Below, piece after piece: positions 45,957-48,793 of a stretch of DNA of 64,000 nucleotides; position 1 is the first letter of the stretch; every line of letters starts with the position of its first letter. This DNA comes from Escherichia coli (GTDB lineage Bacteria > Pseudomonadota > Gammaproteobacteria > Enterobacterales > Enterobacteriaceae): assembly GCF_003334765.1 (NCBI RefSeq), contig NZ_QOWT01000002.1, one strand, 5' to 3'. The notes under the pieces are model-generated. The model saw only the letters and a program-made list of their open reading frames with translations, did no database searches and was not told the DNA's origin. The position numbers and the translations under genes are program-made.

Positions 45957-47684
45957 TCACTGACTGATGTCAGTCACACCATCCGCCAGTTCAATCAGGC
46001 GAATAAATTCCGCCCTGTAACCCTGTGGATCTTCCCCTTTTGCCTGCTGAGCCCACTGTTTGATCTGCTGCCAGGAGGTATTGTTCAGGTATTCAGAACC
46101 GCGTAACTTTTGCCCATATGCAGCTACTGCTGCGCGAAAACGCATATCTTCAGAGGGCGCGTTTATTGTTGGCCCCAGCGGGAATTCAACTAACTGACTT
46201 TCTTTTCCCTGCGGGTATTTCCAGCGAATTTTTAACCAGGCCAGTTCTTTCGTTTTGTCCGATTTCGCTAATTTGTTATCCGGGGCATAGCGTAACTTAT
46301 CAATTGATGCTTTTTGCCCGTTCAGCGTTAATTCGAATAACAACGTTATATGTTTGCCTGCGCCTATATCCCCTGCATCAACGTTGTCGTTATTAAAATG
46401 TTCCACCCGAAGTTGGCGCTTTTCATAACCAATCTGACGGTATTCCGTTACCCACGCGGGGTTAAACTCAATTTGCGCTTTGACATCTTTTGCTACGGTA
46501 ATCAACATCTGCCGCATTTCACTATTCAATACTTTCTGCGCTTCAGAGAGGGTATCAATGTAGCTGTAGTTGCCGTTACCAACATCGGCAATTCGCACCA
46601 TCATTGCCTCGTTGTAATTGCTATTCCCCACGCCAAACGTCGACAGAGTAACACCAGACTCCCGCTGTTTTTTGACCATTGATTCAATCGATTTTGGATC
46701 GTCAATGCCAACGTTAAAGTCACCGTCAGTGGCTAATAAAATGCGATTGATGCCGCCCTTAATAAACCCCTTCGTCGCCTGCTGATAAGCCAGTTCCAGC
46801 CCGGCACCGCCATTGGTACTGCCTTCGGCATCCAGCGAATCAATTGCGGCATTAATTTCCGCCTTATGACTCCCGGAGATAGAAGGCAATGCAATACGGG
46901 AGTCGCCAGCGTAGGTCACGATGGCAATGTTATCCTGCTCACGAAGTTCTTTGACCAATAATTTCAACGAAGACTGGATAAGTGGCAAACGTTCATCAGA
47001 AATCATTGAACCAGAAGTGTCGATAAGAAAGACCAGATTAGAAGCTGGTAACTCTTCACTTTTGCGATCTTTCGCCAGGATATCAACTTTCAGCAATGTT
47101 CGCTGTTCATTCCATGGTGCAGGTGCCAATTCGTAGCGCATAGCGAAAGGTATTGGCTTAGAGGCCGGAATAGATTGTTTGTCTTTGATATCCCAATCAG
47201 ACGGGAAATAATTGACTATCTCCTCCACCCGCACAGCGTCTGGCGGAGGTAACAGCCCTTGATTGAGGAAACGCCTTACATTCGCATAACTGCCAGTGTC
47301 AACGTCAAGACTAAACGTCGCCAACGGATTTTGCGCTACCTGCTTAACCGGATTATCATCGAACTGCTGGTAGCGAGCGGTTCCTGGATTTGCGATATGT
47401 GTAGCTTTTGCTTTAGCCGCTCTTGCAAATGTTGGCGCTTCCTGCAATCGCCCCTGTAAAGCCTGTTTGTCTGAATATTGTTGCACTTCTTGCTGGGCCA
47501 AGGCTTTCGCGGCGGCGGCGCTTTGCTCAGCCTCTTTTATTGCAGCTTGCTGCGCGGCAAGCACTTGCTGCTCTGTGGGAGTACTGGGTTGTTGTTGCTG
47601 ACTTTCCTTATTCTCAGGTTGCGGCCCACATCCTGACAAAATCAAACTACTCATAAGCAACATGATTATATTTTTATTTCGCAT
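45957..47684 (-). CDS. yfbK: lipoprotein with von Willebrand factor type A domain (575 aa)
   Basis: Track ORF 45957..47684; lipobox LILSGC, Q/A-rich linker, MIDAS motif DTSGSM. Confidence 0.88.
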   Translation of the reverse strand: MRNKNIIMLLMSSLILSGCGPQPENKESQQQQPSTPTEQQVLAAQQAAIKEAEQSAAAAKALAQQEVQQYSDKQALQGRLQEAPTFARAAKAKATHIANPGTARYQQFDDNPVKQVAQNPLATFSLDVDTGSYANVRRFLNQGLLPPPDAVRVEEIVNYFPSDWDIKDKQSIPASKPIPFAMRYELAPAPWNEQRTLLKVDILAKDRKSEELPASNLVFLIDTSGSMISDERLPLIQSSLKLLVKELREQDNIAIVTYAGDSRIALPSISGSHKAEINAAIDSLDAEGSTNGGAGLELAYQQATKGFIKGGINRILLATDGDFNVGIDDPKSIESMVKKQRESGVTLSTFGVGNSNYNEAMMVRIADVGNGNYSYIDTLSEAQKVLNSEMRQMLITVAKDVKAQIEFNPAWVTEYRQIGYEKRQLRVEHFNNDNVDAGDIGAGKHITLLFELTLNGQKASIDKLRYAPDNKLAKSDKTKELAWLKIRWKYPQGKESQLVEFPLGPTINAPSEDMRFRAAVAAYGQKLRGSEYLNNTSWQQIKQWAQQAKGEDPQGYRAEFIRLIELADGVTDISQ

Positions 47685-47821
47685 ATAAAATCCTTTTAAA
47701 TAAACTCAGGCACCAGACATAAAATATACTCTTTGTATAATCCTGCTAATCTTAATAAAATACAATATCGAAACCCATAGCAAATAATGATTCAACAACG
47801 CAACCCATTAATAATTTGCAT

Positions 47822-48793
47822 ATGAAAAAAATAATCTTTGCTTTTATTATATTATTTGTGTTTTTACTCCCTATGATTATTTTTTACCAACCCTGGGTCA
47901 ATGCATTACCGTCAACGCCCCGACACGCAAGTCCTGAGCAATTAGAAAAAACAGTTCGTTATCTTACACAAACTGTGCATCCACGTAGTGCCGACAATAT
48001 TGATAATCTGAATAGGTCCGCAGAATATATAAAAGAGGTCTTTGTCAGTAGCGGTGCCAGAGTTACCTCGCAGGACGTCCCCATTACGGGTGGCCCCTAC
48101 AAAAACATTGTTGCTGATTATGGTCCTGCCGATGGACCGCTGATTATTATTGGTGCGCATTATGACTCTGCCAGCAGTTATGAAAACGATCAATTGACCT
48201 ATACGCCGGGCGCGGATGATAACGCCAGCGGTGTGGCAGGATTACTCGAACTGGCACGTTTGTTACATCAGCAAGTACCGAAAACAGGCGTGCAGCTGGT
48301 CGCCTATGCGTCGGAAGAACCGCCCTTCTTTCGTAGCGATGAAATGGGGAGCGCGGTGCATGCAGCTTCGCTTGAGCGTCCAGTGAAATTAATGATAGCA
48401 CTGGAGATGATTGGCTATTACGACTCTGCGCCTGGAAGCCAGAATTACCCTTACCCGGCAATGTCCTGGCTTTATCCCGATCGGGGAGACTTTATTGCCG
48501 TGGTCGGCAGAATACAGGATATCAACGCCGTTCGTCAGGTAAAAGCGGCATTGTTGTCATCTCAGGATTTATCTGTTTATTCTATGAATACCCCAGGGTT
48601 TATTCCCGGTATTGATTTCTCTGACCACCTGAATTATTGGCAACACGATATTCCCGCCATAATGATTACTGACACCGCTTTTTATCGTAATAAACAATAC
48701 CACTTGCCCGGTGATACCGCAGACAGATTGAATTATCAGAAAATGGCTCAGGTAGTGGATGGTGTTATAACTTTGTTATACAACAGTAAATAA
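47822..48793 (+). CDS. yfbL: M28-family aminopeptidase-like membrane-anchored protein (323 aa)
   Basis: Track ORF 47816..48793; N-terminal TM helix; M28 metal-ligand motifs (GAHYDS, ADDNASG, ASEEPPFF). Start at 47822 vs 47816 uncertain. Confidence 0.85.
   Translation: MKKIIFAFIILFVFLLPMIIFYQPWVNALPSTPRHASPEQLEKTVRYLTQTVHPRSADNIDNLNRSAEYIKEVFVSSGARVTSQDVPITGGPYKNIVADYGPADGPLIIIGAHYDSASSYENDQLTYTPGADDNASGVAGLLELARLLHQQVPKTGVQLVAYASEEPPFFRSDEMGSAVHAASLERPVKLMIALEMIGYYDSAPGSQNYPYPAMSWLYPDRGDFIAVVGRIQDINAVRQVKAALLSSQDLSVYSMNTPGFIPGIDFSDHLNYWQHDIPAIMITDTAFYRNKQYHLPGDTADRLNYQKMAQVVDGVITLLYNSK

Follow-up and report, generated by a model that had tools for sequence, protein, structure and literature searches.

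The divergent genes yfbK and yfbL of Escherichia coli, which lie in the 64,000-nucleotide stretch of DNA analysed here (the window), are interpreted, with moderate confidence, as accessory envelope genes that owe their proximity to common descent within a small clade of enterobacteria and that most likely each work alone. We only infer the independence of YfbK and YfbL itself, from the distribution, neighbourhood and loss patterns described below.

Both are ordinary, previously annotated genes of E. coli K-12, and the pair is already known. In identical E. coli genomes, RefSeq names them a vWA domain-containing protein (yfbK) and an M28 family metallopeptidase (yfbL). Their reading frames are present in the ORF list of the window at the positions given by the initial annotation, but the 131-bp spacer that it proposed (47685..47815) is wrong. 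The TTG at 47816 is not the yfbL start and reads TTA in other alleles, whereas the ATG at 47822 is annotated and conserved; the spacer therefore covers 47685..47821 (137 bp). No obvious Shine-Dalgarno sequence was seen upstream of yfbL. Induction of yfbL by MMS and the recovery of yfbK as a hit in persister and conjugation screens are single-screen mentions with no follow-up and carry no weight here.

45957..47684, minus strand, yfbK coding sequence for a 575-aa vWA-domain lipoprotein (ORF, RefSeq annotation and Pfam domains)
47685..47821, no strand, AT-rich spacer separating the two divergent start codons (137 bp, 27.7% GC)
47822..48793, plus strand, yfbL coding sequence for a 323-aa M28 family metallopeptidase (RefSeq, Pfam PF04389 with E = 6e-25, AlphaFold2 model)

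YfbK consists of the following parts.

47628..47684, minus strand, signal peptide and lipobox L16-S-G-C19 with Gly at +2 (pattern match, CoBaltDB)
47385..47627, minus strand, Gln/Ala-rich linker, residues 20-100 (composition, AlphaFold2)
47088..47381, minus strand, vWF_A N-terminal domain PF12450, residues 102-199 (Pfam E = 2e-32)
46536..47039, minus strand, VWA domain PF00092, residues 216-383 (Pfam E = 4e-22)
47007..47021, minus strand, MIDAS motif D222-T-S224-G-S226 (pattern match)
45981..46508, minus strand, YfbK_C domain PF12034, formerly DUF3520, residues 393-568 (Pfam E = 6e-66)

The lipobox, the Gln/Ala-rich linker and the intact MIDAS motif that had been read from the sequence of YfbK were all borne out by pattern match, composition and alignment. 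The LSGC (residues 16-19) comes after an N-terminus that is first basic and then hydrophobic, and it conforms to the lipobox pattern [LVI][ASTVI][GAS]C, which predicts a lipoprotein, and CoBaltDB counts YfbK among the E. coli lipoproteins (PMC2850352). Based on the +2 rule, the Gly at this position predicts sorting to the outer membrane. The linker contains 19 Ala and 17 Gln in 81 residues and is modelled by AlphaFold2 as a long helix (residues 38-77), with pLDDT values under 50 on either side (residues 17-32 and 76-100). PF12450, VWA and PF12034 follow in the order of the YfbK family, which is named after this protein. D222, S224, S226, T290 and D320 are invariant among 49 homologs, so the MIDAS set includes its downstream Thr and Asp. 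The assignment of YfbK as a predicted envelope vWA lipoprotein whose MIDAS site is intact is supported.

The AlphaFold2 model of YfbK (pLDDT 87) matches ArnB, a Catenulispora vWA protein, ITIH1 and Sec24, and its YfbK_C domain, modelled as a beta-sandwich followed by a helical bundle, resembles ArnB-like and Sec23/24-like folds. The best matches of the model share the ArnB / Sec23-Sec24 core of vWA, beta-sandwich and helical parts (4fx5 for the Catenulispora protein) with E-values of 1e-17 to 1e-15, and the paper on ArnAB already remarks on the fold resemblance of YfbK (PMC12852372). Identity to these ArnB/Sec23-Sec24-type matches is 12-16%, with TM-scores of 0.35-0.49. ArnB is a cytoplasmic protein under phosphorylation control, whereas YfbK is predicted to be exported and lipidated and is not accompanied by an ArnA-like partner. 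For the vWA domain alone, the nearest solved sequences are BatA/BatB of Bacteroides (3ibs and 4jdu; E = 1e-7 to 2e-6, TM-score about 0.73 on the target). The Bat proteins, however, are anchored by TM helices, lack the N-terminal and YfbK_C domains, and are encoded in a bat operon. There is no bat operon at this locus: a MoxR-type ATPase, a DUF58 protein and TPR proteins, which mark the aerotolerance operon, are not annotated between menF and nuoN.

YfbL has a simpler organization.

47825..47887, plus strand, N-terminal hydrophobic helix, residues 2-22 (hydropathy, predicted helix)
48104..48772, plus strand, Peptidase_M28 catalytic domain, residues 95-317 (Pfam, ligand mapping, alignment)

Residues 2-22 reach a 19-residue Kyte-Doolittle mean of 3.0 and are helical in the prediction. 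The single N-terminal TM helix of the initial annotation thus stands as a hydrophobic helix, by hydropathy and model, and prediction does not separate an uncleaved anchor from a cleavable signal peptide. Alignment with the Aeromonas aminopeptidase equates H113 with H97, D133 with D117, E165/E166 with E151/E152, E195 with D179 (an Asp to Glu replacement) and H294 with H256. The ligands H113, D133, E166, E195 and H294 and the catalytic E165 are invariant among 38 homologs, so that the M28 zinc-ligand motifs are intact as claimed (Pfam E = 6e-25), except that the fifth ligand is H294 of 'YH' and not the His of 'SDH'.

The YfbL model (pLDDT 89) matches both M28 aminopeptidases and glutaminyl cyclases, with E-values down to 1e-17, and its fold and ligand set are those of the M28 family, with Glu rather than Asp as the fourth ligand. 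YfbL shares the Pfam M28 domain, the five ligands and the catalytic Glu with the co-catalytic M28 leucine aminopeptidases (Aeromonas/Vibrio proteolyticus AAP 1amp, Legionella LapA and Streptomyces SGAP), which it matches in fold at E-values of about 1e-14 to 1e-15 at only about 20% identity. It differs from them in having Glu as the fourth ligand throughout its subfamily, in carrying an N-terminal membrane segment, and in lacking a protease-associated domain or pro-domain. It also scores well under the NCBIfam cut-offs for LapA (50 bits against 600) and Iap (21 against 298). The sequence supports YfbL as a putative membrane-associated zinc peptidase of family M28 whose ligands are intact.

The divergent pair is confined to Escherichia, Superficieibacter and a handful of other enterobacteria related to them, where it occupies the variable, low-GC segment between rbn and nuoN. 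Among 80 YfbK-family species, a YfbL homolog adjoins the YfbK homolog in two (E. albertii and Superficieibacter), both enterobacterial, and the adjacency is also seen on three enterobacterial contigs (L084, L087 and L088). The partner is absent from the other 78 of the 80 loci, that is, it was found at 0/78 of the more distant ones, and a vWA neighbour is absent at all four distant YfbL loci (Lysobacter, Usitatibacteraceae and two others). Adjacency of yfbK and yfbL thus does not extend across distantly related genomes, as gene-neighbourhood evidence of linkage would have it. In Hafnia, the YfbK homolog is a lone lipoprotein beside an aconitase gene. The diversity of YfbK was taken from a representative search, as the initial protein search matched E. 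coli clusters only; the closest representatives outside Escherichia (P0121 and P0122) lie on 2-kb contigs on which no neighbours are visible. Only about five paired YfbK-YfbL sequences exist.

A different partner is common elsewhere in the family. At 41 of the 80 loci, an ECF sigma gene directly adjoins the YfbK-family gene on the same strand, and an exemplar of these sigma factors scores above the NCBIfam PRK12513 cut-off. The anti-sigma factors of group ECF289 have been described as fusions of DUF3520 and von Willebrand domains (Casas-Pastor et al. 2021, PMC7826278). Like YfbK, anti-sigma factors of the ECF289 type and the lipoproteins related to them contain PF12450, PF00092 and PF12034 with an invariant MIDAS, and the sigma-linked homologs are 41-53% identical to YfbK. 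The Pseudomonas relatives are likewise lipoproteins (a lipobox is present in L009). Unlike in ECF289 systems, E. coli yfbK has no adjacent ECF sigma gene, anti-sigma domain or downstream membrane-protein gene, and an M28 peptidase gene lies beside it; it is flanked by elaD (convergent) and yfbL (divergent), and no sigma ORF is present. Because the sigma-linked module of the YfbK family is the published ECF289 module, E. coli YfbK belongs to it as an orphan.

The spacer and the downstream end of yfbK contain the following sequence elements.

45902..45937, no strand, perfect 16-bp hairpin between the convergent elaD and yfbK ends (-35.9 kcal/mol, z = -7.07 against shuffles)
47714..47741, plus strand, best sigma-70-like site facing yfbL, CAGACA, 16 nt, TATAAT (10/12 matches, from a consensus scan alone)
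47721..47726, minus strand, candidate yfbK -10 element TATATT (picked by eye and inferential), back-to-back with the TATAAT facing yfbL

The hairpin is probably a bidirectional terminator. The spacer scan returned one promoter-like site toward yfbL and none toward yfbK. In the region as a whole, 12 promoter-like consensus sites were counted against 7.7 +/- 2.7 in shuffled sequences, which is no excess over chance, and the promoter and terminator scan returned nothing exceeding the shuffles. The yfbL-facing TATAAT at 47714..47741 is kept in K-12, B2 and L087 and is absent from the yfbK-deleted E. coli allele and from E. albertii. The spacers of the K-12 and B2 alleles are about 95% identical, and strong divergence is seen in the yfbK-deleted haplotype and E. 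albertii. Shared regulation from the 137-bp spacer is possible. No Rfam family matched anywhere in 44000..51000, even at E = 0.1, so the spacer holds no known riboswitch or sRNA. A gSELEX peak of LldR falls within yfbK; its authors deem it a non-target.

Both genes are frequently missing within E. coli. Among 5,426 complete genomes, yfbK is covered to at least 80% in 2,514 and yfbL in 3,293; yfbK is missing from about 54% and yfbL is truncated in about 38%. Two deletions were delimited.

45997..47553, no strand, segment lost in yfbK-deleted E. coli haplotypes (pairwise BLAST, with the same boundaries in BL21-AI and isolate 3702594)
48083..48408, no strand, yfbL segment lost in about 2,060 E. 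coli genomes (this is the yfbL pseudogene found in BL21 and numerous STEC strains)

About 780 yfbK-deleted genomes retain a full-length yfbL, and the internal yfbL deletion was seen solely in genomes already lacking yfbK. In the E. albertii type strain, yfbK is intact, and a stop codon replaces W216 of yfbL. The dN/dS values are 0.13-0.17 for yfbK and 0.23-0.28 for yfbL, in comparisons that include a yfbL allele from a yfbK-deleted genome; by this measure, both genes are under purifying selection. The two genes are neighbours in few gut bacteria and are often lost singly, so any teamwork between them would be hypothetical.

The initial annotation had read the divergent arrangement as a co-regulated functional pair. 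The synteny on which it was based holds within the clade, but co-regulation and coupling are not borne out, given the narrow distribution, the single losses and the sigma partner elsewhere. One form of such a pair would be a co-regulated envelope module, in which outer-membrane YfbK captures a periplasmic protein or peptide through its tether and MIDAS site and inner-membrane YfbL trims it (or YfbL processes YfbK itself), with back-to-back promoters driving both genes. The divergent arrangement has been kept in five enterobacterial lineages and remains intact at the same chromosomal site despite 31-37% (YfbK) and 26-38% (YfbL) protein divergence from E. coli in Superficieibacter, L087 and L088, while the flanking elaD, yfbM and yfbN-P turned over. 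The conservation of the spacer between K-12 and B2 also argues against independence, as it exceeds that of synonymous sites in the flanking genes (pS 0.13-0.19), and the tether of about 80 residues could in principle span to an inner-membrane partner. The deletion of yfbL only after loss of yfbK would fit a yfbL that is dispensable once yfbK is gone, although this order of losses carries no statistical weight because only two deletion events are involved. On the other hand, linkage outside the clade is zero at both the YfbK-family and the distant YfbL loci, the many full-length yfbL genes in genomes without yfbK have a dN/dS of about 0.25, E. albertii keeps yfbK beside a nonsense-bearing yfbL, and the promoter scan is at chance level. 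According to a preprint, mutants of yfbL and yfbO resist phage N4 and are complemented, and yfbK is not among the genes given (bioRxiv 10.1101/2025.09.29.679331). We therefore regard such a module as rather unlikely, and the comparative data lean against strict coupling of yfbK and yfbL. Quite improbable, in our estimate, is a recent trans-envelope module of the Escherichia lineage, in which an orphan ECF-type vWA sensor lipoprotein was recruited to capture substrates for an inner-membrane M28 aminopeptidase and the two jointly shape an envelope feature relevant to phage N4 infection and perhaps to conjugation. If true, joint function would give a role to two remaining y-genes of E. coli K-12 and would mean that a sigma-factor sensor module was recycled as a peptidase partner.

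The phage N4 resistance of the yfbL mutant would also suit a specific envelope role unrelated to YfbK, with YfbL being not an aminopeptidase but an enzyme of the M28 fold, similar to glutaminyl cyclases or specialised in some other way, by which the N-termini of envelope proteins are modified. Bacterial type II glutaminyl cyclases of similar size are the top Foldseek matches of YfbL (BtQC of Bacteroides thetaiotaomicron, 7d1e/4fuu, E = 2e-17, followed by PgQC and TfQC of Porphyromonas and Tannerella), and the same cyclases match in a sequence search of solved structures. However, the aminopeptidases 1amp, LapA and SGAP match nearly equally well. Glutaminyl cyclases bind one zinc, having lost the second metal site, and are not known to have an equivalent of His97. 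YfbL retains the two residues that form the second metal site in co-catalytic aminopeptidases: H113 (H97) and E195 (D179) are kept in YfbL and in 38/38 homologs. We think a cyclase-like YfbL very unlikely. We give still less credence, amounting to a slim chance, to the idea that yfbK and yfbL are without function, decaying relics of low-GC DNA that entered the rbn–nuoN segment by horizontal transfer, and that they survive in K-12 only by chance. The low GC content (36-47% against 51-59% in the flanks), the frequent absence or truncation of both genes, the IS1 and IS903B insertions at the locus in some strains, the description of yfbK as a pseudogene in Salmonella papers and the lack of an obvious Shine-Dalgarno sequence at yfbL would all fit. 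Nevertheless, dN/dS values of 0.13-0.28 in intact alleles largely refute it, the catalytic and MIDAS residues are all intact, the yfbL deletion has a complemented phenotype, and a proteome screen of E. coli picked up the YfbK protein (PMC5790219). An anti-phage defence island was also considered and dropped, as no PADLOC model matches YfbK, YfbL, YfbM or YfbN.

In the preferred interpretation of two accessory proteins working separately, the tether of YfbK would hold a three-part module in the periplasm, comprising the N-terminal domain, the vWA domain with its complete MIDAS and YfbK_C. From MIDAS chemistry, this module may bind a carboxylate of its ligand through a divalent metal. Elsewhere, the same type of module serves as the periplasmic sensor of ECF289 systems, in some cases fused to the anti-sigma factor and in others as a separate lipoprotein whose gene adjoins that of the sigma factor, and the enterobacterial copy is an orphan with no sigma partner. 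YfbL would be a periplasm-facing co-catalytic M28 exopeptidase of the two-zinc type, whose N-terminal segment holds it at, or releases it from, the inner membrane, and ligand conservation and fold suggest that it may remove residues from the N-terminus of peptides or proteins in the periplasm. Back-to-back promoters may sit in the AT-rich spacer, from which the two genes are transcribed in opposite directions.

A practical gain of this analysis is the corrected start codon of yfbL and the corrected spacer length. The locus is a presence/absence polymorphism: yfbK is missing from over half of E. coli genomes, BL21 and numerous STEC strains among them, and a functional yfbL is missing from many; phenotypes measured in K-12 will therefore not carry over to these strains. 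For the YfbK family, the useful outcome is the placement of YfbK in the ECF289 sensor family, as an orphan.

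The segment 45800..48900 occurs with 100% identity in many E. coli chromosomes, where it is annotated as elaD–yfbK–yfbL–yfbM. The wider gene order in these identical records is menF-elaB-elaA-rbn-elaD-yfbK-yfbL-yfbM-yfbN-yfbO-yfbP-nuoN. The features considered here are as follows.

45957..47684, minus strand, yfbK, a 575-codon ORF
47685..47821, yfbK–yfbL spacer, 137 bp, 27.7% GC
47822..48793, plus strand, yfbL, 323 aa, with the RefSeq start
about 50.6-51.0 kb of the window, yfbO

The sequence-level description in the initial annotation is correct except for the start codon of yfbL, which had been placed at TTG 47816. 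RefSeq uses ATG 47822, and this codon is kept in the B2 allele, the yfbK-deleted allele, and Escherichia albertii, all three of which have TTA in place of the TTG. Because yfbL starts at ATG 47822, the spacer extends to 47821. The AAGGA located 7 nt before yfbK is a good Shine-Dalgarno sequence; yfbL lacks a recognisable one. The sole consensus promoter-like site in the spacer (47714..47741) faces yfbL, and the overall count of such sites does not exceed that in shuffled sequence. Read by eye, a minus-strand TATATT (47721..47726) lies back-to-back with the yfbL TATAAT and could be a candidate −10 element of yfbK. The spacers of the K-12 and B2 alleles share ~95% identity; those of the yfbK-deleted haplotype and E. 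albertii are far more diverged, and both have lost the TATAAT. An Rfam search matched no family, and a literature search found no expression study of the pair.

The features ascribed to YfbK are all present. Its lipobox (L16-S-G-C19) is followed by Gly at +2, the linker (residues 20-100) contains 19 Ala and 17 Gln, and the MIDAS motif (D222-T-S-G-S226) is intact. The Pfam domains are vWF_A (102-199), VWA (216-383), and YfbK_C (393-568), and across 49 aligned family members the MIDAS residues D222, S224, S226, T290, and D320 do not vary. In the AlphaFold2 model (pLDDT 86.6), a tether of low confidence apart from a long helix (38-77) leads into a compact core. Structurally, this core is best matched by archaeal ArnB, Catenulispora vWA protein 4fx5, ITIH1, and Sec24. 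This layout of vWA, beta-sandwich, and helical parts was already remarked for YfbK in the ArnAB paper (PMC12852372), and the protein is included in a lipoprotein listing (PMC2850352) and among Q-rich proteins of detergent-resistant aggregates (PMC5790219).

YfbL contains a Peptidase_M28 domain (Pfam), and its zinc-ligand motifs are intact, as had been stated. Alignment to Aeromonas aminopeptidase places all ligands (H113, D133, E166, E195, and H294) and the catalytic E165, with the difference that E195 is Glu where the Aeromonas enzyme has Asp179. These residues are invariant in 38/38 homologs (46-74% identity). For the YfbL model (pLDDT 89.4), the structural matches to bacterial glutaminyl cyclases and to leucine aminopeptidases are of about equal quality. 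The alignment favours a two-metal aminopeptidase, because neither residue of the second metal site has been lost. The proposed N-terminal TM helix corresponds to a strongly hydrophobic stretch at 2-22, which could be either a signal anchor or a cleavable signal peptide.

To place the gene pair in a wider context, an alignment of distant YfbK relatives was used to scan one genome per species, and 80 loci spread over many phyla were recovered. Only two of these, in E. albertii and Superficieibacter electus, have a YfbL homolog within 7 kb, in both cases with the same divergent orientation. Searching from the YfbL side added three enterobacterial contigs (L084, L087, and L088), with the pair lying in the rbn–nuoN interval of each. 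The neighbourhoods of YfbL homologs from Lysobacter, Usitatibacteraceae, and two other distant contigs contain no YfbK partner, and the Hafnia YfbK homolog is encoded by a solitary lipoprotein gene adjoining an aconitase gene. Because the pair is confined to enterobacterial loci and missing at distant ones, the adjacency is clade-specific synteny. Inside the clade it holds, with elaD, yfbM, and yfbN-P gained or lost around it.

The more frequent neighbour of the YfbK family is an ECF sigma factor gene, directly adjacent on the same strand in 41/80 loci (among L007-L077). It is downstream in 25, immediately upstream in 13, and overlapping, through ORF calling, in 3. The downstream position occurs in Pseudomonas and other Gammaproteobacteria, and the immediately upstream one in Alphaproteobacteria, Verrucomicrobia, and Scalindua. 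An exemplar sigma factor clears the NCBIfam PRK12513 cut-off. Twelve loci have a conserved same-strand ORF of ~206 aa further downstream, possibly an anti-sigma factor. This linkage agrees with the description of ECF289, whose anti-sigma factors are DUF3520 fused to a von Willebrand domain (Casas-Pastor et al. 2021, PMC7826278). Unlike this sensor family, E. coli YfbK has no adjacent sigma partner and is thus an orphan of it.

Among 5,426 complete E. coli genomes (presence defined as ≥80% gene coverage), yfbK is present in 2,514, and ~1,550 others retain just its last 40 nt. yfbL is present in 3,293; in ~2,060, an internal segment of it is missing (window 48083..48408), and BL21-AI has this form annotated as a frameshifted pseudogene. 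An isolate with intact yfbL shares the exact yfbK deletion boundaries (~45997..47553) of BL21-AI; the deletion is therefore one old event, and a deletion inside yfbL came second. A junction query of the complete genomes found undeleted yfbL in essentially every yfbK-positive genome (2,526), and it revealed no class that combines yfbK with a deleted yfbL. Both genes are kept in ~46%, yfbL alone in ~14%, and in ~38% yfbK is deleted and yfbL truncated. The opposite state is seen in the E. albertii type strain NBRC 107761 (L004:618-1592, minus strand), where an in-frame stop replaces Trp216 of yfbL next to an intact yfbK, although a sequencing error is possible in this single draft genome. The dN/dS values are 0.13-0.17 for yfbK, 0.23-0.28 for yfbL, including the allele from a yfbK-deleted genome, and 0.013 for nuoN; both genes are constrained, less so than nuoN.

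In the yfbK-deleted haplotype, the yfbK 5′ remnant, spacer, and 5′ part of yfbL (window 47553..48082 against L002:4220-4728) share only ~80-88% identity with K-12. This divergence, far above that of the core genes on either side, suggests that the locus has an allelic lineage that separated long ago. In some otherwise K-12-like strains, IS903B and IS1 have inserted independently and break yfbK or the yfbK–yfbL region (E. coli DAX4, CUPF12, and EC24; hits H1, H13, and H43).

The rbn–nuoN interval (window 44500..52000; compared in L001, L002, L003, L088, and L093) has a low GC content (36-47%) and strain-dependent genes: elaD-yfbK-L-M-N-O-P in K-12, yfbK-L-M only in B2 strains, and elaD, the yfbL pseudogene, yfbM, and ISEcB1 in BL21. 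One enterobacterium has an AAA_15/AAA_21 ATPase gene and a 199-aa gene beyond yfbL. Immediately adjoining yfbK, elaD (44675..45886) encodes an ElaD/SseL family deubiquitinase (NCBIfam E = 1e-136); it is missing from B2-type strains and from non-Escherichia contigs with the pair. Between the convergent elaD and yfbK 3′ ends, 45902..45937 forms a perfect 16-bp hairpin (−35.9 kcal/mol, z = −7.07), which is kept in yfbK-deleted haplotypes and is likely a bidirectional terminator.

In a 2025 preprint, Keio mutants of yfbL and of yfbO were each reported to be specifically resistant to phage N4 and were complemented; yfbK is not among its hits (bioRxiv 10.1101/2025.09.29.679331). The remaining literature mentions of either gene are single-screen hits. 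Earlier work already covers the two genes, their families, and the fold of YfbK, and the finding is an ordinary one. The functional, co-regulated pair proposed in the initial annotation is possible but unproven. The comparative evidence mostly favours independent action, with yfbK and yfbL as two accessory envelope genes that would be neighbours by descent.
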